Both the position numbers and the translations under genes were made by a program. This document shows positions 18,150 through 28,855 of a DNA stretch of 64,000 nt, piece after piece. Each line of letters opens with the position of its first letter. Positions within the stretch are counted from its first letter, which is position 1. Source of the stretch: a candidate division WOR-3 bacterium (GTDB taxonomy: Bacteria > Hydrothermota > Tepidihabitantia > B3-TA06); the NCBI GenBank assembly GCA_016934635.1, contig JAFGSK010000071.1, positions 1,294 to 65,293 of the forward strand, written 5' to 3'. The notes beneath the pieces are model-generated. The model saw only the letters and a list, made by a program, of their open reading frames with translations, searched no databases and had not been told where the DNA came from.

Positions 18150-19196
18150 ATGGCGTGGCTGGTAGTTCAGTTCGCGATCTGCGTCGGTGTCATCGTTGCG
18201 GCAGGTTTTTTCCTGGTAAGGTTCGGAGATGCGCTTGCCGAGAAAACTAAGCTCGGACGTTTATGGGCTGGCGCTATACTCATCGCCACTGCCACGTCTT
18301 TACCTGAGCTTTTCACCGGGATAAGTTCGGTACTCATATTCGACGTTCCGGATTTGACGGTCGGAACCCTTTTAGGCTCGTGCGCCTTTAACCTTCTCCT
18401 TCTGGTCATGCTCGATATTCTTACGGGAAAACGATCTTTCTTCGACGGCGTCAACCCTGCCTATATCGTCGAGGCAGGATTTGCACTTTCCTTCACGACG
18501 ATAATGGCCCTGGGGCTTTTCTTCTCGGCGGAGTTCAAGGATTTCCCCTGGATTTGGCCTGGCAGCATACTTCTGCCCGCAGTCTACGTTCTTGCCGTAC
18601 ACATTACCATGCGCGAGGGTCGGTATCCTCCGTACGTCCAGGATTTGACCAAAGAGGAAGCCGAGGCTATGAAGGCGCGAGCGCGCAAGGTCAAAACCGG
18701 CAGGAAAAAGGAGAAGCCTCTGACCCTATGGCAGACGATCCTTGGGTACGCGGTTTCGGCGCTTCTTGTAATCGGCGCTTCTATATGGCTTCCAGGCGTC
18801 GCAGACAAGATAGCTGGACGGGTACCCTGGCTCGGAACGACGGTGATAGGCGGGATAGTGGTAGCCTTGACCACCTCGCTACCTGAGATAATAACGACTA
18901 TTGCCGCCTTCAAGCTCGGTGCGGTGGACATGGCGTTCTCGAACGTGGTAGGCTCGAACCTTTTCAACATCCTCATACTCGGCATAGACGACATGCTTTA
19001 CTTCAAGGGGCCGATAACCTCCCACGTGTCCGGTGTGAATCTCGGTACGGCGTTGATAGTCATGGGGATGACTGCGGTGGTCATTATCGCCCTGGCAATC
19101 AGGAGGCAGCGGAAATTCCTCAGGCTGTCCCTGGCAAGCTGGGCGCTGGTACTGTCCTTTATTGCCAACATCCTGCTAGTTTCGTTTCTCGCCTAG
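18150..19196 (+). CDS. Ca2+:cation antiporter (CaCA) family membrane protein, YrbG-like sodium/calcium exchanger
   Basis: Two alpha-repeat signatures, ATSLPELFTGISS and TTSLPEIITTIAA...GSNLFNILILG. About 10 predicted TM helices. Confidence 0.75.
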   Translation: MAWLVVQFAICVGVIVAAGFFLVRFGDALAEKTKLGRLWAGAILIATATSLPELFTGISSVLIFDVPDLTVGTLLGSCAFNLLLLVMLDILTGKRSFFDGVNPAYIVEAGFALSFTTIMALGLFFSAEFKDFPWIWPGSILLPAVYVLAVHITMREGRYPPYVQDLTKEEAEAMKARARKVKTGRKKEKPLTLWQTILGYAVSALLVIGASIWLPGVADKIAGRVPWLGTTVIGGIVVALTTSLPEIITTIAAFKLGAVDMAFSNVVGSNLFNILILGIDDMLYFKGPITSHVSGVNLGTALIVMGMTAVVIIALAIRRQRKFLRLSLASWALVLSFIANILLVSFLA

Positions 19197-19264
19197 CGGA
19201 GCGATTAAACGAAGTAACAGCTGTAGATTCCCTGCGTTTTTTTACTCACAATCCTGTGGTTACT

Positions 19265-19300
19265 TGCCGCTGTGAGCCGTCAGCTCAGAGCTGTGAGCTG
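19265..19300. repeat. Direct repeat of GCTGTGAGC(N)GTCAGC (x2) downstream of the antiporter; an inverted copy lies at 17795-17813
   Basis: ccgctgtgagccgtcagc tcaga gctgtgagctgtcagcgg. The upstream region has ccgctcacagctgagag, the reverse complement of the core. Confidence 0.6.
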
Positions 19301-19499
19301 TCAGCGGTTAGTTCTCCATCCTTGACATCACCGATCCTGTGACTATTATTATCCTCAATGTACGGCAATAAGGCGGTTGCATTCGCTACTGAACCAGGGG
19401 ATGCCTCCAGAAAAGACTCCAGACATGAATCGGACGCAGGTTTTTTTCGGGTTAACGGTCTATATAATGAGAAAGAAATTCCTTCGATCGGAGGTTTTA

Positions 19500-22358
19500 A
19501 TGTGGTCTAAGATGATTAGGGCTGCCATTGTGGGGTTGATACTTGCCGTGCCTGCGTCTGCGCAGTATTTCTACGGCAAGAACAAGGTGCAGCGGGAGGT
19601 TGAAGCAACCTATACCTACGAGACCGAGCATTGTACCATCTACATAGAAGAGGGCGGAGAGCCTCTTGCTAGGTTTGCTGCAGAGGCGGCAGAGGAGGCC
19701 TATAAGCAGCATGCCCAGGACTTCGGGTTCGAGATTCCTTTCAAGATTCCGGTCATCATCTATAAATCGCAGCCTGATTTTGCCGCAACCAACATTATAC
19801 TTGAACCTATCGAGGAATCGATAGGCGGCTTTGCAGAGATTTTCAAGAACCGCGCGGTAATTCCTTTTACCGGATCCTACGAGGATCTCAGGCACGTTAT
19901 CTTCCACGAACTGGTGCATATTTTCCAGTACGAGCTATACTACTCTTTGACTATGTCCAACCTTTTCTCCATCATACCCGGTTTTACACCGCCTCTGTGG
20001 ATAATGGAGGGCTGTGCAGAATTTTCGTCATCCCACGGAGGCGCGGACGAAGACGCCTTCATGCGCGATCTACTCCTGACCAACAATATCATTCCCCTGG
20101 AAGAGCTGGAGTATTGGCAGGGTTATATCGTTTACCGCCAGGGTGAGTCGGTATTCATGTTCATCGAGGATCGCTACGGTCGTGAAAAGGCCTTTGAACT
20201 CATGCACGCCATCAAGTTGAGGGGGAGCATGGACGGTGCGTTCGAGAAGGTTTTCGGGATGAGTGTCGAGGAGTTCGGCAAGGACTGGCTGAACTGGCTG
20301 CGCAAGAAGTATCTTCCCGAGATAGAAAAACTGGACAACCGCAAGATCCAGGCCAGGCTGCTAACAGACCATGAAAAGGACTTTTCGTACTACAACGGTA
20401 GTGTGGCCCTCTCGCCATCAGGTGCCAAGATAGCCTATGCTACCACCAAGGGAGACTATATCACGGTCAACGTGATCAGCGGGTTCGACGGCAAGCCTTT
20501 AAAGAAGCTGCTCAAGGCAGGTCGCTCGGCAACCTTTGAGAGGTTACCGCTTCTGCGCCGGACCCTTGCCTGGTCCGAAGATGAGACCTATCTTGCAGTA
20601 CTAGGATTTTCCCGCAACCAGCCGGTTCTTTTGTGGGTAAACTACTCCACAGGCAAGACCGAGAAAAGGTATCGGCTGAAGGTTGATGATGCATATGCAC
20701 CTGTCATATCACCTGACGGTAATCGCGTGGTTTACGTGGGTATCAAGGACGGCCAAAGCGATCTTTATTCGCTTGACCTGGGGTCGGGAAACGTTGAACG
20801 TTTAACCTACGACCTTTACGAGGAGCAGGACCCTTCTTTTAACGAAGGTTACGTGCTTTACGTGTGCGATAAGCCTGATCAAGACAGCGTATGGCGCGTA
20901 GGCAGCTACGCCGTATGGCAGCTATCAGCGTCAGGAAGGACCAAGCGCGTCTCACCGAGGTTCTCTGAACTTTCCTGCCCATATCGTATGGAAGATGAGA
21001 TTGTATTCATAGGTTCCGGATACAATCTTTACTCCTATGATCCGGAGGATTCCACCCTTATTCAGCTTACCGACTGGTTCGAGAAGATAGAGGAGTTTTC
21101 GCCTGCTTCAAGCGGGAAGGCTGCGATGATTATTTACACCAACTCGGGTTACGACGTGGCAATGCTTAACGGTACCCTCGAAGGTCTTACACCTGCCCAG
21201 GACAGCCTGGAGATAGCCCATGCCGATCTTTTCTCCTATGAGCCGGAAGAGGTGACCATAGAGGACCTTGAACCCTACAAGCCAGCCTTTTCGGCGGATT
21301 ACATCTACGGGTCAGGGGCTTACTCCTCCCTGTACGGGGCAACCGGCAATATCAGCCTGGCTATCAGCGATATGCTGGGAGATCACCGCATCTACATAGA
21401 CGCCAATCTCTACGGGGATATACTCTATTCGGATATAGTCGTATCCTACTGGTTCCTTAAACGCAGGGTAGATTATGCGGTTGGCGGTTTTCAACTTGGC
21501 GATTATTATCTGTATTTAACCTCGGATTCGTCGTTTTTGTACATCGAGCGTGCCCGGCGAGGATTGAGTACCCTGGTTTCAATGCCCTGGAGTAAGTTTT
21601 TCAGACTGGAAACCGGCCTTGACGGGATGGCGGTAACTCACCATGAGTATTACGACGGATACATTGACGAAACAGGCAACATAGTATTTGAGCATGATAC
21701 GATATACACCCAGCCTTTATTCCAAGCCAACGCCTGGCTTGTGTTCGACAATGCGATATGGAATTACTATACCCCGATGAACGGATTGCGGCTGAGGTTG
21801 GGTGGGTACAGTTCCTTTCTTTCTTCTACCCAATACCAGACCGTGATGACCGACCTCAGGGGCTATCTACCGATCACACGCAGAGCCTCGATTGCCCTTC
21901 GTACCTTTGGGGCTGCAAGTTTCGGTCAAGACAGGGAATACTTCTATCTGGCCGGAGGCGGATTCGGGGAGTACCGCGATTTCTTCTTCTTCGGCGGGCC
22001 GTACGAGGTTCGGGGCTACCAGTACTCCTCCTACGATGCGTTCGTCGGTTCAAAGGTTGCTTTTGCAAACCTTGAGCTCCGGGTTCCGTTCGTGGATCAG
22101 CTGAAGATGTCTTTTCCCCTGCCATTGAACCTGGGCGGGATTCGAGGGGTTGTTTTTACCGATGCCGGGTTCGTATGGGACGAAGAACTGCCTCGACTTT
22201 GGCAGGGCGGCAGACTCGAAGACCTCAAGGCCGGGTACGGGGTAGGAATTCGCTGGGTCTTCGGTTACTTTATGCTCAAGTTTGATTTTGCCAGGCCGTA
22301 TCAAACCGATGAGGAGAAACCATGGAAGTTTCATTTCCGGATAGGTGCGGATTTCTAA
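19500..22358 (+). CDS. Outer-membrane Omp85-family beta-barrel protein with N-terminal HEXXH metallopeptidase-like domain and PD40/TolB-like beta-propeller repeats
   Basis: RBS GGAGG 9 nt upstream of ATG 19500. Signal peptide MWSKMIRAAIVGLILAVPASAQ. HELVH zinc-binding motif. PD40-like repeats (ISPDGNRVVYV, SDLYSLDLGSG). C-terminal Omp85 barrel signatures: the VRGY loop-6 motif (GGPYEVRGYQY), GYGVGIRWVFGYFMLKFDFARP, terminal F. Confidence 0.6.
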   Translation: MWSKMIRAAIVGLILAVPASAQYFYGKNKVQREVEATYTYETEHCTIYIEEGGEPLARFAAEAAEEAYKQHAQDFGFEIPFKIPVIIYKSQPDFAATNIILEPIEESIGGFAEIFKNRAVIPFTGSYEDLRHVIFHELVHIFQYELYYSLTMSNLFSIIPGFTPPLWIMEGCAEFSSSHGGADEDAFMRDLLLTNNIIPLEELEYWQGYIVYRQGESVFMFIEDRYGREKAFELMHAIKLRGSMDGAFEKVFGMSVEEFGKDWLNWLRKKYLPEIEKLDNRKIQARLLTDHEKDFSYYNGSVALSPSGAKIAYATTKGDYITVNVISGFDGKPLKKLLKAGRSATFERLPLLRRTLAWSEDETYLAVLGFSRNQPVLLWVNYSTGKTEKRYRLKVDDAYAPVISPDGNRVVYVGIKDGQSDLYSLDLGSGNVERLTYDLYEEQDPSFNEGYVLYVCDKPDQDSVWRVGSYAVWQLSASGRTKRVSPRFSELSCPYRMEDEIVFIGSGYNLYSYDPEDSTLIQLTDWFEKIEEFSPASSGKAAMIIYTNSGYDVAMLNGTLEGLTPAQDSLEIAHADLFSYEPEEVTIEDLEPYKPAFSADYIYGSGAYSSLYGATGNISLAISDMLGDHRIYIDANLYGDILYSDIVVSYWFLKRRVDYAVGGFQLGDYYLYLTSDSSFLYIERARRGLSTLVSMPWSKFFRLETGLDGMAVTHHEYYDGYIDETGNIVFEHDTIYTQPLFQANAWLVFDNAIWNYYTPMNGLRLRLGGYSSFLSSTQYQTVMTDLRGYLPITRRASIALRTFGAASFGQDREYFYLAGGGFGEYRDFFFFGGPYEVRGYQYSSYDAFVGSKVAFANLELRVPFVDQLKMSFPLPLNLGGIRGVVFTDAGFVWDEELPRLWQGGRLEDLKAGYGVGIRWVFGYFMLKFDFARPYQTDEEKPWKFHFRIGADF

Positions 22359-23557
22359 CCAGGCGGATCTTTCCCTCGGTGTTTTTTGTGGGAGTGGTTC
22401 TTGTTCTCACCGGATGTGTGAATATCCTTAAGCCTCCCGAAGATATACTCTATGAAGATATCCCTGAGTATTCCTGGGAAACCCTTCTGCTTCAACATTC
22501 ATTCAATTTCAACTATAACAGCTACAGCGACGTTTTTTCATTCGAGGTTAGAGGTAAAGGGCAGGTTGTTATGCCTGATGCGCTGCGGTTTAAGGGCACC
22601 TGGAAGTTAGGTGAAGAAGAGCGAGTTCTCGACATGGCTGCAGCCGGGTCTTTTCAACTGGAGAAGGAGGGGGGGCAATGGGTAGCCCGTCAGCGAAGCG
22701 AGGAAACCAAGATAATTGACCAGGTTGACCAGGTTTTACGTTATTCACTTTTACGTAAGAAAGGAAAGGGGTTTGAACTGGTTGAAGATGAAGGTAAAGT
22801 GCTGAATTACTCATTTACACCCGCCCTGGCACACCTTGATCCGAAATTTGAAAAGGAGTTCGACGCGATATTAGTAATCGACGGCAGGACACTTCTGGCA
22901 AAGGAGATTCACGTTATTTCGGACGATGAGGAGGTAGGGTTTGATTTTGAAATATCAAGTGTAAATCGGGCAAAAAAGATCGGTCTTCCTTTTTCTGCAA
23001 ATTTTATGATTACGTACGATCACGAGTGGGGGAGTACGGGTAAGGCTACAAGGGGTTTAAAGAAGCGCTTGAAGGAGTTAGGTCGTGAATCTCGCATTCA
23101 CGTGCGGCAGGGTGAGATTGAAGTTAGGCTGGCCCTTCCTGTGGATGAGTCGATTGCCCGTGCATTGGGTGAACCGGGTCAGCTAACTATTCTTGGTTTG
23201 AACCTTGAAGGTTCGGGCCCAACGATTAACAAGAGGGGAGAGGTTTCAGATATCTTCCATGTGGCTGATACGGTGGCATGGCCTGTGGTAAAATCGGTTG
23301 AACTCGGGTTCGATTCGCTGAGCAGACCCTTACTTGAAACGGAACTCGTTAAGTCCGAGCCTTTATCCCGCTCATTTGACTATCTCGGTGTTGCAGTTGA
23401 CGGTGTGCTATATGAGGTTTTTGCGGTTGACAATCCCCTTGATTTGATTAGGATTTCAAATGTGGCTACCTATCAGGATGTCCTTGCGTTGGCATTGAAG
23501 CTGGAAAAAGACATGAGGGCAAAGATGAATTTTGTCGACCAGAAGCGTCTGAGGTAA
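22322..23557 (+). CDS. Hypothetical lipoprotein
   Basis: Signal peptide with lipobox LVLTGC. No recognizable catalytic motifs. Overlaps the 3' end of the Omp85-like gene. Confidence 0.5.
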   Translation: MEVSFPDRCGFLTRRIFPSVFFVGVVLVLTGCVNILKPPEDILYEDIPEYSWETLLLQHSFNFNYNSYSDVFSFEVRGKGQVVMPDALRFKGTWKLGEEERVLDMAAAGSFQLEKEGGQWVARQRSEETKIIDQVDQVLRYSLLRKKGKGFELVEDEGKVLNYSFTPALAHLDPKFEKEFDAILVIDGRTLLAKEIHVISDDEEVGFDFEISSVNRAKKIGLPFSANFMITYDHEWGSTGKATRGLKKRLKELGRESRIHVRQGEIEVRLALPVDESIARALGEPGQLTILGLNLEGSGPTINKRGEVSDIFHVADTVAWPVVKSVELGFDSLSRPLLETELVKSEPLSRSFDYLGVAVDGVLYEVFAVDNPLDLIRISNVATYQDVLALALKLEKDMRAKMNFVDQKRLR

Positions 23558-23848
23558 AGGTATGATTTCTAATCGTGATCCAGGTAGTGTTCTTTTGGGC
23601 AGGATAGTTGAGAGGCGGAATAGATTATAGAGGGAAGTTACAATATTATGAGAAACGGTACAAAAAGGAGTGTCTAGGAAGCTAATTGATCGTTCTATGA
23701 TCGATTCCAGACCGAGTAAAATCACGAGATTCCCTTGTAAAAAAGGGATACAAGACCAAGAGGTGTGCCGTATGAAAAAAGCGAATATAACCTATTATGA
23801 TAATTGTTGTTTGTATGTGGAGTATAGTAAGAAAACAAGGGGGATAGG

Positions 23849-26800
23849 TTGAGAAAAATAACAGCCCTTCTTTTTGCTTCATGGTCTTTAGCTTTGAGTC
23901 AGGTCAGCGTTACTTCAGCTATACCTGGCGAGGTAAAGATCAAGATTAGGGCGCCTGAGAGTGTAGACGCTTTAACCTCTCACAGCAAGTTAGATCTCGA
24001 GAATCTTTATCCAGGGACTAAGCTGGTCGCAGATACATCAGGTACAGTTTTACCTCAGTATGTAATTTATATTGGCGTACCTCCTCATGGAGAGGTTCGA
24101 GTTGATTTCCAGTTAGGTTCATCGCGTAATTTAAAAGGAATTCAGCTTGATGACCTGCACTGGCCTGCAGTCCTGGAGAAACCTGGTGACGAACCCAGGA
24201 TTAGTCACTGGGTGAGTAATGCATCCAGAGTTGACTACACCGTAAGCCGTTGGCGGGATTACCGGGTTGTAGTCATTAACGCAAGACCGATCTTCTACGA
24301 TACGACGACAAACACCCTAACATTATACAAGGAGATTGCAGTTGAGGTTTCTTTCAGCGAACCGCCTTACCAGACAGGTGAACCTATAACCAACAGCAAT
24401 CTTGAGTACATATATTCCTCATCGATAACGAATTACGAACAGTGTAAAGACTGGACAATACCTTTTGGAGAGGTAGCATCCAATCCTTTTAAAGGCACGG
24501 ATAATTGGATCAAAGTCAGGATTCCAGAGGACGGGGTTTACCGTATCAGCTTTCGGGATTTAAAGAAACTGGATATAGAGCCTGACAAGATAGACCCTAA
24601 GACCTTACGGTTAGTTTACGCGGGAGAACGCCTGATAGATGAGAATCTCCCGGATACATTGAAGGAATTACCGATCTATGTTCACGGAGAGATGGACGGA
24701 AGCTTTGATCGTGAGGATTACATCGTTTTCTTTGCCCGTGGAGCTAACCATTGGGATTTTACCCAGCGAAGGTTCGAAACGAACCCTTATGTTAATGAAA
24801 ACGTGTACTGGCTAACCTGGGGCGGGGCAAAGGGTATACGGAATCCTACACGTGCCGCATATCCATTGGTCAGGGAAGCGGAGCATTCAGCTCCTGGTAT
24901 ACTTCACTTTGAGGAGGATCACGAGTGTCCTGGTCGTGCAGGCTTCCTTTGGTTATGGGAAGAGATTACGAAGACAAATGTGGATGTTATACGAAAGGAT
25001 ACCTTTATACTTGATCTTTCAGGCGTAATAGCAGTGGATACCTTTACTATCAAGGCTTATACTACGACCAGACAGGCAGGTTTTCGCGTACTGGTAGACG
25101 AAGACACTCTTTACTCCATACCAGTTGCAGATGACAGCAGGTACCCACCTGATTACGTTTCTGTTTCTCCAGGATTTACTATTAAAGATGAGCTTCCTTT
25201 AGTTATCGAAGTATTCGGTCCTTCGGAGCAGAATCTATATCCAGATTGGATACGGATGGTTGCAACGCGGGAATTGTCATTTAAACATAACCCTTTCTGG
25301 GTAGAACTGGAACCTAATAAGGTATACGAGTTCGGTGGTGTCAGATCCGGTTCATATCTTTATGATTATAGCGATCCTGCAAATCCGGTTATCCTGACTG
25401 ATTGGCAGCTTAAAAACAGAAAGCTCGTGATGAGTACTCGAACAAAGGAGATTATACCGGTTTGGGTCGCTGCCGGGCAGGGACTTCTTATACCAGACCT
25501 TGAAATTGCAGAACCGGGGAAGCTTTGGGATGAGGATTGGAATGTCGATTACGTGATTCTTTCAACCAGCGAGAATTTCGAGGCTGCCAGTGAATTGAGC
25601 GAATACCGGTCGCAGAACCTCCAGATTCCAGGGGTAAGCACCCCAAGGGTAAAGGCTGTAGATTTAGCGGATATTGTTCGAGATTTCGGCTACGGATTAG
25701 CCGAACCACAGGCAATTCGTCATTTCCTTTCCTACGTATACAATAAAAGCGCGGGTAGAACCCTTTATGTACTGATCATGGGAGACGGATCATACGATTA
25801 CAAGAACAACCTGGGTTTTACGGGTAGGCCGGAGTATTTTCCAATTCATACTCAGGATACGATACTCGATCCTAACGTGTATACGGTGATTGCGGCAACG
25901 AAGGAAGCATGGTTCGTAGATTTTGACGATGACGGTGAACATAACCCTGAGATGTGCATTGCCAGGATAACTGCAAGAGGCCCGCGTGAAGCCTACGACG
26001 TTCTAGAGAAGATTAAGGCATACGAACAAGTTCCTGCCGAGGCATGGCAGAGTCGTGTCATCTTGCTTTCCGACGACTATTACGAAGGAAGTCCCTCCAT
26101 AAGAGATCCAATCTCCAATCATATACCTGCTAATGAGGAGTTAGCCAAAGATTACCTTTATCCTGAATTCGATCCTGTCAAGGTTTACCTGTCCGACTAT
26201 CCACTTATCGGTGGGAGAAAAGATGACGCCAAGAAAGCCTTAATCGATGCACTGAACAGAGGAGCGTTACTGTGGCAGTTCTTTGGACACGGTAATGGAA
26301 GCCAGCTTGCTCATGAAGAGGTTTTCTTGTACTCCGATGCCTCAGGATTGCAGAATGGAAGCAAGTTACCTCTGGCCTTGTTCTGTTCGTGTGGGGTAGG
26401 ACGCTTCGAGGATACACGGTGGGAATGCGTGGCCGAGGAGCTTTTACGAAATGAAAACGGAGGCGTGATTGCATCGATTGCCGCTACCAAAGGCACCGGG
26501 CCAGATGCCAATCAATATATGACCGATTCTCTTTTCAGTAAATACAGGGGGTTTAAAAACTCAAACCTAGGTGATCTCTTTTTCTCACTGGTTCCGGGCA
26601 ATTCAATTACTATCCTTTACGTTTTATTCGGTGACCCTGGGATGCGATTCTCGTTTCCTACCGCTCTGGAGGTTAGTTCGGCATCGGATTCTTTTGTTAC
26701 CGGCGACACTGCAGTGGTATTATTTAACGCTCCCGCAGAAGAGGGTGGATGGTTTGCATCTGCATACGGAAGTTGGGTTAAGAAAAAAGAGGTTGTCTAC

Positions 26801-27691
26801 GGTATTGGTTATGGTTTTAAAGGAGATTTACTTTATCGAGCGCGGGGCGAGCTCTCAGGTGAAGAGCAGATATTGAGGTTTATAGTGCCTCAAGGGGTTG
26901 CAGAAGGGGATTCTGCATACATACACTTGATGTGTGCAGACGATGATTCTATCTATACATATCGGATTGAACCGATCAAGGTCGTCACAGGTTCTGTTAC
27001 GTCGAGTGATTACCAAGGACCGACTGCAGGATTCTTGGTTAACGGTAAACCTGTTCTTGATGGGGATACCGTTCTTCCGTCTTTCACCCTGACAATCGAA
27101 CTCCAAGATCAGTCAGGGATAAACCTGGCAGGTAAAACAGGACTTCGAGGACCTGCCATAGGTCGCAAGTTCAGTCTAGAGATCAACGAATCAGATCCAG
27201 TCGACCTTTCTCCTTACTTTGAGTATGAGGTTTCTTCAGATGAACTGGCTACCAAAGGTGTTGCGAATCTGCCGATTTCGTTTGCACAGGAGGACAATAT
27301 CCTTACATTATACGCCGTAGATAACATGAGAAATACCTCCCAGTACGATCTCAACCTTTATACCGCCTTTGAACGCAATCTTGAAGTAGAGACGCCTTTA
27401 GTTTATCCCAATCCGGTTTCATCTACTGCAGAGTTTACGTTTGAGCTTAATGCAGCAGCAGATGTATCGGTTCTGATATTTTCGATAAGCGGTAGACTTG
27501 TTAGACGTCTGCCTGTCCTGTCTTATCCAGAAGGCTTTAGTTCCTATGCCTGGGATGGATTGGATGCCAGCGGTAGACCTCTGCCCAATGGCGTTTATAT
27601 CTATCGTTTAACGGCAGAAACAGGTCCTGAAGATGCCTGGTTGCCCAATGCACGCACCTCGGTAAACGAGAAGTTTATCGTGGTGCATTAG
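23849..27691 (+). CDS. Peptidase C25 (gingipain/PorU-like) family cysteine peptidase with C-terminal T9SS sorting domain
   Basis: TTG start with RBS AAGGGGGA. Signal peptide. Segment LLWQFFGHGNGSQ...LALFCSCGVGRF is compatible with the C25 His/Cys dyad region. C-terminus YPNPVSSTAEFTFEL...VSVLIFSISGRLVRRL...GVYIYRL matches the Por_Secre_tail CTD. Length 1280 aa is similar to PorU. Confidence 0.6.
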   Translation: MRKITALLFASWSLALSQVSVTSAIPGEVKIKIRAPESVDALTSHSKLDLENLYPGTKLVADTSGTVLPQYVIYIGVPPHGEVRVDFQLGSSRNLKGIQLDDLHWPAVLEKPGDEPRISHWVSNASRVDYTVSRWRDYRVVVINARPIFYDTTTNTLTLYKEIAVEVSFSEPPYQTGEPITNSNLEYIYSSSITNYEQCKDWTIPFGEVASNPFKGTDNWIKVRIPEDGVYRISFRDLKKLDIEPDKIDPKTLRLVYAGERLIDENLPDTLKELPIYVHGEMDGSFDREDYIVFFARGANHWDFTQRRFETNPYVNENVYWLTWGGAKGIRNPTRAAYPLVREAEHSAPGILHFEEDHECPGRAGFLWLWEEITKTNVDVIRKDTFILDLSGVIAVDTFTIKAYTTTRQAGFRVLVDEDTLYSIPVADDSRYPPDYVSVSPGFTIKDELPLVIEVFGPSEQNLYPDWIRMVATRELSFKHNPFWVELEPNKVYEFGGVRSGSYLYDYSDPANPVILTDWQLKNRKLVMSTRTKEIIPVWVAAGQGLLIPDLEIAEPGKLWDEDWNVDYVILSTSENFEAASELSEYRSQNLQIPGVSTPRVKAVDLADIVRDFGYGLAEPQAIRHFLSYVYNKSAGRTLYVLIMGDGSYDYKNNLGFTGRPEYFPIHTQDTILDPNVYTVIAATKEAWFVDFDDDGEHNPEMCIARITARGPREAYDVLEKIKAYEQVPAEAWQSRVILLSDDYYEGSPSIRDPISNHIPANEELAKDYLYPEFDPVKVYLSDYPLIGGRKDDAKKALIDALNRGALLWQFFGHGNGSQLAHEEVFLYSDASGLQNGSKLPLALFCSCGVGRFEDTRWECVAEELLRNENGGVIASIAATKGTGPDANQYMTDSLFSKYRGFKNSNLGDLFFSLVPGNSITILYVLFGDPGMRFSFPTALEVSSASDSFVTGDTAVVLFNAPAEEGGWFASAYGSWVKKKEVVYGIGYGFKGDLLYRARGELSGEEQILRFIVPQGVAEGDSAYIHLMCADDDSIYTYRIEPIKVVTGSVTSSDYQGPTAGFLVNGKPVLDGDTVLPSFTLTIELQDQSGINLAGKTGLRGPAIGRKFSLEINESDPVDLSPYFEYEVSSDELATKGVANLPISFAQEDNILTLYAVDNMRNTSQYDLNLYTAFERNLEVETPLVYPNPVSSTAEFTFELNAAADVSVLIFSISGRLVRRLPVLSYPEGFSSYAWDGLDASGRPLPNGVYIYRLTAETGPEDAWLPNARTSVNEKFIVVH

Positions 27692-27700
27692 TGAAGATTT

Positions 27701-28477
27701 ATGGCTAATCTGTTATGGCTTAAGCCGACCGCTGGGGGGAACCTTCCCCCAACCAGTATATTCTTGGCAACGAGGAGGGCAATTAATGCACTTTTTGTTC
27801 TTGGAAGCTTCAATCCGGTCCTGAGACCGAAGGCATACGAACGTTTAGTTACATTACTCTACGAACGTTTCAAGACACTTGGGTTGAATGATGTAAGGGT
27901 AGAGCATTCCCTGGAGTCCGGCAGGATTTTAGGTCAAGATTTACCTATCTACGTCGCTCTCAGGAGACCGAAGGACCTTTTGACTACTACTACCTTTTCC
28001 GAGATACTTGCCGAGCAGCAGATGCTTCACGAGGACTTGGAAAGGGAAGATGTCTTCAAGCTTCTTTATCAGGCGATCAACGGTGTCCAGCATATCTTGA
28101 CCGACACCGAAGCTGCATGGAAGCTTCTGTGCGAGGAGTGGGACTCCCTTGAGATTGAAAACGACGAGCCTTTTGCCGAACGTATATCACCTGAAGGGGA
28201 TTTATACCGCGTCAATCTCAGACCTGCCAAGGAACTTGCCCTAGATATGTCCAGGCTCTTCGAGGCGATGAAACGTTCAACCTTACTCCTCAGCGCTGGA
28301 TTCGAGCAACGTAAGACTCGACTTTTAGCCGCAGTGTCTTCAATTGGCGTCGAAGCGGATGAGGTTCCGGAACAACCTTTGAGGCATTCTGAGTCTTACA
28401 AGACCAGGGTACGTCCTGCATATCGGTTACTTCACGCTTCGGAGATCGCAGGGCTGTTGACTCCATCCGGTAAATAA
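27701..28477 (+). CDS. Hypothetical protein
   Basis: 258-aa ORF with no recognizable motifs. Tightly follows the C25 gene. Confidence 0.4.
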   Translation: MANLLWLKPTAGGNLPPTSIFLATRRAINALFVLGSFNPVLRPKAYERLVTLLYERFKTLGLNDVRVEHSLESGRILGQDLPIYVALRRPKDLLTTTTFSEILAEQQMLHEDLEREDVFKLLYQAINGVQHILTDTEAAWKLLCEEWDSLEIENDEPFAERISPEGDLYRVNLRPAKELALDMSRLFEAMKRSTLLLSAGFEQRKTRLLAAVSSIGVEADEVPEQPLRHSESYKTRVRPAYRLLHASEIAGLLTPSGK

Positions 28478-28510
28478 GGATTCGGCTTTGTAATAAACTA
28501 AGGAGGCGAA

Positions 28511-28855
28511 ATGTTGGTTCGCAGTATAACCGAGGTAAAACAAGACCAGGTGGAGACTGAAGGGGCCAGCGGTGTGAAGATTCGTTGGCTTATTTCAGCC
28601 GATGAGGGAGCACCGAACTTCGCCATGCGCGAATTCGAGATTGAACCTGGAGGGCACACACCTTATCATTCGCATGACTGGGAACATGAGGTTTTCGTGC
28701 TTTCAGGAGAGGGGACGGCGGTCAGCGAGGGAAAAGAGCACCCTATAAAAAAAGGGATGGTTGTTTTCGTTCCGGGAAGGGAAATGCACAACTTCAAGAA
28801 TACCGGGTCAGAAACGCTCAGGTTTCTGTGTTTAGTTCCCCATAAGAAGGATTAA
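28511..28855 (+). CDS. Cupin domain protein (cupin_2)
   Basis: RBS AAGGAGG. Motifs PYHSHDWEHEVFVLSGEG ... MHNFKNTG are typical of the small bicupin-fold metal-binding site. Confidence 0.7.
   Translation: MLVRSITEVKQDQVETEGASGVKIRWLISADEGAPNFAMREFEIEPGGHTPYHSHDWEHEVFVLSGEGTAVSEGKEHPIKKGMVVFVPGREMHNFKNTGSETLRFLCLVPHKKD

Follow-up and report, generated by a model that had tools for sequence, protein, structure and literature searches.

What does an Omp85 barrel do when a zinc peptidase and a beta-propeller stand in the position of its POTRA domains? Proteins of the Omp85 superfamily have a central part in outer-membrane biogenesis, and the window, a stretch of 64,000 nucleotides from a candidate division WOR-3 bacterium, adds a well-modelled WOR-3 member that raises this question. 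The protein is encoded by gene A, and its identical counterpart at NCBI is named 'BamA/TamA family outer membrane protein'. The reading favoured here, which we regard as moderately probable, is that it is an outer-membrane-anchored periplasmic peptidase that acts in envelope protein quality control or processing, with a possible local link to surface-protein attachment in a WOR-3 subclade.

Layout of the gene A protein

The open reading frame of gene A first opens at a TTG codon (19377), and the ATG at 19500 is the start of the signal peptide, MWSKMIRAAIVGLILAVPASA, with a GGAGG sequence 6 nt upstream. Residues are numbered from this ATG. By the -3/-1 rule, cleavage is predicted after the ASA motif at residues 19-21. 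In the invariant motif that comes next, N28 and K29 are kept in all of the aligned sequences (93/93), and the mean pLDDT rises from 58 for residues 21-30 to 84 for residues 31-40. The signal peptide is followed by a peptidase domain, a single propeller, a 40-residue linker and the Omp85 barrel (Table 1). Prediction of the full-length structure with AlphaFold2 (pLDDT 88, pTM 0.87) gave a 16-strand Omp85 barrel at the C-terminus and gluzincin secondary structure in the HEXXH segment.

Table 1. Features of gene A, gene B and the adjoining DNA (window coordinates)
Feature	Coordinates	Strand	Residues	Basis or remark
16-nt direct repeat GCTGTGAGC(C/T)GTCAGC, 2 copies (19269-19284, 19290-19305), 5-nt spacer	19269..19305	+		sequence
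Promoter-like site TTGACA-16-TATTAT	19322..19349	+		11/12 positions; consensus match only
Gene A, peptidase-propeller-Omp85 protein of the WD40-like Omp85 subfamily	19500..22358	+	952 aa	
Sec signal peptide	19500..19562	+	1-21	sequence; helix at residues 2-15 in model
(F/Y)GKNK(V/I)Q motif, directly 3' of signal peptide	19572..19592	+	25-31	invariant
Gluzincin-type metallopeptidase domain (clan MA, Peptidase_MA_2)	19602..20354	+	about 35-285	PF13485, secondary structure
HELVH zinc-binding and catalytic motif	19905..19919	+	136-140	alignment
Predicted third zinc ligand, in PLWxxEGxAE, 29 residues past HEXXH	20007..20009	+	Glu170	
Six-bladed TolB-type (PD40) beta-propeller, one	20355..21167	+	about 286-556	
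Linker, 40 residues, where BamA/TamA have POTRA domains	21168..21287	+	557-596	Pfam, model
16-strand Omp85 beta-barrel (~356 residues), with stop codon	21288..22358	+	597-952	
Loop-6 VRGY motif	22008..22019	+	837-840	alignment
Strand-13 F-x-D-x-G motif	22155..22169	+	886-890	alignment
Gene B, lipoprotein, WOR-3 subclade only	22322..23557	+	411 aa	overlaps gene A 3' end by 37 nt
Lipobox L-T-G-C of gene B	22406..22417	+	Cys32 lipidated	orthologue alignment
Predicted LolA/LolB/LppX-like half-barrel domain of gene B	22451..22966	+	about 44-215	
porU, T9SS sortase, peptidase C25 with own T9SS sorting tail	23849..27691	+		NF033707, PF01364

A conserved metallopeptidase domain

An initial annotation of the sequence had placed a zinc-binding HELVH motif in the N-terminal part of the protein, and the motif is indeed found there, within a domain of the Peptidase_MA_2 family (PF13485). 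With the whole protein as query, this family matches residues 64-268 with 30.7 bits, just under its cut-off of 32.4; the isolated domain reaches 34.8 bits and thus passes the Pfam gathering threshold of 32.4, and 17 of 17 sampled relatives match as well (best E 2e-17). The modelled domain has a beta sheet and a helical bundle, with the HEXXH helix at residues 127-148 and the Glu helix at 166-177. No direct structural match was obtained for it, and M9 collagenases give weak profile matches aligned on HExxH...WxEGxAEY.

The combination that marks clan MA(E) gluzincins, HEXXH with a downstream Glu, is present. H136, E137 and H140 are kept in 93/93 sequences with identity down to 29%, and P165, W167, E170 and G171 are identical in the same number. 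In addition, this peptidase subtype is almost confined to proteins of 870-1200 aa in which it is the N-terminal domain (397 clusters at E <= 1e-30). As judged from the alignment, such strict family-wide conservation of the active site argues for a real, active enzyme. Alternatively, the domain could be a non-catalytic binding module and the whole protein a structural outer-membrane tether or receptor, an idea in keeping with TolB-type propellers, which are often protein-binding hubs. Nevertheless, we regard it as very improbable, given that retention of HEXXH and of the third-ligand Glu in every sequence, over deep divergence, is the pattern expected of an active enzyme.

Propeller, linker and barrel

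The initial annotation had also described TolB-like PD40 propellers that replace POTRA domains. The PD40 repeats (PF07676, 27 bits, cut-off 20.9) and the lack of POTRA domains were borne out, but there is one propeller, not several. Its best structural match is TolB, and TIGR02800 (TolB) scores 51.6 against an equivalog cut-off of 343, covering the propeller only. In contrast to TolB, gene A has no N-terminal alpha/beta domain of the TolB kind, and the peptidase precedes the propeller instead. As for the linker, no POTRA family in Pfam matches gene A at E <= 0.1, and the modelled segment has only a single strand of 3 residues and two helical turns of the same length, with no beta-alpha-alpha-beta-beta unit.

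The barrel is recognised by PF01103 over residues 683-952 (E 1.6e-20, 74 bits, cut-off 24) and is longer than the 300 residues first proposed. All the motifs attributed to it were located, namely VRGY, GYGVGIRW (912-919), FDFARP within KFDFARP (925-931) and the terminal F952. In loop 6, whose motif takes the form (V/L)RG(Y/F) here and (V/I)RG(F/Y) in the superfamily, R838 is kept in 93/93 and G839 in 91/93 sequences. The FxDxG motif of strand 13, (F/G)xDxG in the superfamily, is the partner of this loop in BamA-type barrels; in the gene A family, F886 and D888 are each kept in 93/93 sequences and G890 in 90/93. An insertion precedes VRGY, at roughly residues 820-834 and with a sequence of about FGEYRDFFFFGGPY; no other WOR-3 relative in alignment A2 has it, and residues 819-834 of the model have a pLDDT <50. 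Overall, the loop-6 RG, FxDxG, GxGxGxR and the C-terminal aromatic are strictly conserved throughout the family, and this conservation of Omp85 functional motifs suggests that the barrel may do more than anchor the protein.

The same motifs are in favour of a specialised insertase, whose barrel would fold particular outer-membrane proteins, as BamA, TamA and Sam50 do. The propeller would then be a scaffold of the BamB kind, and the peptidase would remove or process stalled substrates. Heinz and Lithgow likewise read the subfamily as a BamA-BamB-like fusion (PMC4104836), and AsmA/TamB-like genes are found two genes upstream of gene A in 8 Ignavibacteria-type loci. However, the TamB linkage is limited to one clade, no substrate candidates were found, and gene A carries an enzyme and a propeller where BamA, TamA and Sam50 have POTRA domains. 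Furthermore, its scores with the NCBIfam models, which match on the barrel only, are far under the equivalog cut-offs (BamA TIGR03303, 64.3 versus 297; TamA, 31.4 versus 625; TamL, 20.3 versus 400). An insertase is thus considered unlikely in comparison with a periplasmic peptidase.

A widespread, already catalogued subfamily

Gene A belongs to the 'WD40-like Omp85' subfamily, which is widespread. In the work of Heinz and Lithgow (2014, Front Microbiol 5:370, PMC4104836), the WD40-like cluster combines PF01103 with PF07676 repeats, and the members in Table S3 have Phyre2 matches to BamA/TamA barrels and to TolB as well as a 'best aminopeptidase hit'. The propeller is discussed there as a BamB-like element, and the peptidase is absent from the text discussion. 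Gene A was placed in the subfamily by matching its composition to the published domain table and Table S3, as it has the same three-part layout and fits the barrel, TolB and aminopeptidase entries. The protein itself is a new sequence, and candidate division WOR-3 was not seen among the members in that study. Of the features of the Omp85 superfamily, the 16-strand barrel and the loop-6 and strand-13 motifs are present and the POTRA domain is missing; this absence has not kept the WD40-like subfamily out of the superfamily (PMC4104836).

Thus, the architecture, first regarded as unusual, had been catalogued in 2014 and is not new. Relatives are encoded in at least 548 species-level genomes, from WOR-3, Zixibacteria, Eisenbacteria, Poribacteria, Marinimicrobia, Ignavibacteria, Bacteroidota and other groups, and the best 80 loci are mostly full-length. 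No experiments on any WD40-like Omp85 member were found in the searchable literature, and the Omp85 subfamilies without POTRA domains have been explicitly called uncharacterised (PMC11116518).

Proposed function

We infer the topology, activity and substrates of the gene A protein as follows. The barrel would anchor the enzyme in the outer membrane, with the peptidase and the propeller hanging on the periplasmic face. Strand 1 of an Omp85 barrel starts on the periplasmic side, and the position of both domains N-terminal to this strand supports their periplasmic placement. By strand counting, the family-invariant SDxLG(N/D)H (623-629) falls in periplasmic turn 1 and DNxxW..PxxGxR (750-764) in turn 4, which fits a docked periplasmic module. 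The propeller may provide a surface for docking or filtering, the part that propellers play in Tricorn and DPP-IV-type peptidases, and might in this way gate the peptidase. The presumed substrates of the peptidase are unfolded polypeptides or peptides that reach the outer membrane.

Gene A would thus fuse parts that are kept separate in E. coli, where BamA supplies the barrel, BamB the propeller and BepA the zinc protease. BepA is reported to be a periplasmic zinc metalloprotease that acts at BAM and removes stalled outer-membrane proteins (PMC13478230). For the role proposed here, its likeness to gene A is one of function: BepA, a separate soluble protein, is an M48 protease that carries TPR repeats, whereas gene A encodes a barrel-fused peptidase of the Peptidase_MA_2 type, and the two protease domains share no homology beyond the HEXXH clan.

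A parallel in layout is PlpD, a patatin-like Omp85 of Pseudomonas aeruginosa, which shows that an Omp85 scaffold can take on roles other than that of an insertase (PMC11116518). In both proteins, a hydrolase domain at the N-terminus is fused to the Omp85 barrel, but the hydrolase of PlpD is a lipase, and PlpD has a single POTRA domain and is a homodimer, in contrast to the zinc peptidase and propeller without POTRA of gene A. This passenger-then-barrel order is the layout first proposed for type Vd secretion, so the barrel could conceivably export its own peptidase and propeller to the cell surface, in a type V-like manner, to digest environmental proteins for nutrition. Export was raised by Heinz and Lithgow by analogy with PlpD, but for a separate 'Metallo' (PF00149) Omp85 subfamily (PMC4104836), and genes for surface machinery and likely cargo abound around gene A: besides porU there are two paralogues in tandem, one of which has a near-threshold T9SS sorting domain. 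Nevertheless, surface display is improbable. The enzyme domain of the prototype, PlpD, is exclusively periplasmic by experiment (PMC11116518). In gene A, moreover, a folded peptidase and propeller of ~530 residues would have to pass unfolded through a lumen that holds the conserved loop 6, no POTRA domain is available, the invariant turn motifs suggest docking in the periplasm, and the host organisms already have the T9SS for surface proteins.

Lipoprotein gene B and the porU neighbourhood

Gene B has an Arg-Arg n-region and a GAGGAG sequence 5 nt upstream of its start. Its Cys32 is kept in 16/16 aligned orthologues, and the orthologues of loci L001, L002, L007 and L011 all have an N-terminal Cys after a hydrophobic stretch. 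Its predicted half-barrel is likened to the LolA/LolB/LppX/LprG lipid-carrier fold. The 37-nt overlap noticed initially is correct (gene B starts at 22322 and gene A ends at 22358) but peculiar to the source genome, as the L001 pair overlaps by 1 nt and the L002 pair is separated by 7 nt. A two-component outer-membrane complex had been proposed as well, with gene adjacency as its sole basis. With 17 database homologues and presence in 5 of 85 loci, gene B is confined to a WOR-3 subclade and therefore cannot be the general partner of the gene A family. Nor did gene neighbourhoods, which vary across phyla, reveal any universal functional partner.

In the WOR-3 subclade, gene A would be translationally coupled to gene B, just upstream of porU (NF033707, 433.9 bits, cut-off 420; PF01364, E 2.1e-59). 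With a LolA/LppX-like lipoprotein as the coupled gene and porU next to it, a local link to surface-protein attachment is possible. The promoter-like site, about 150 nt upstream of the gene A start, is the best in a consensus scan of 19100-28700; together with the A/B overlap and the lack of any terminator-like site seen between gene A and porU, it supports an operon. The A-B-porU order is shared by L001, L002/3, L007 and L011, whose A proteins are 38-40% identical to that of the window, and in L002 porV follows porU. A conserved operon that joins a LolA-like lipoprotein to a T9SS sortase in this subclade is a new lead. S41 periplasmic proteases occur near gene A both in WOR-3 (L002/L007/L011) and in the distant lineage of a Cytophagia MAG (L047), which supports the quality-control theme.

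This conserved order, the predicted lipid-carrier-type fold of gene B and the Cytophagia MAG, where porU, a thioredoxin-like gene, Prc and gene A independently share one strand, might indicate a T9SS accessory in WOR-3 that trims cargo or cleaved C-terminal domains, or whose LolA-like B hands a lipid anchor to PorU. However, B and porU are both missing from the surroundings of most family members, those of other WOR-3 and Stahlbacteria genomes among them, the 291-nt gap between B and porU contains a weak promoter-like site, and A and B match no NCBIfam model of a T9SS component. In addition, PorU works at the cell surface, and the enzyme domains of A are probably periplasmic. An accessory of this kind is therefore quite improbable, and the reading as a periplasmic peptidase is preferred.

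More speculatively, and rather unlikely in our view, A-B could form an unrecognised outer-membrane module with PorU and PorV in WOR-3 that clears or processes cargo or cleaved sorting domains, or supplies the lipid anchor. On a wider view, every member of the subfamily could be a quality-control machine for outer-membrane proteins that is complete in itself, with the functions of BamA, BamB and BepA in one chain. If such a fused insertase-protease device were real, it would show how the FCB group and other carriers police outer-membrane protein assembly.

Finally, a direct repeat sits just upstream of the promoter-like site and could be the binding site of a putative regulator.

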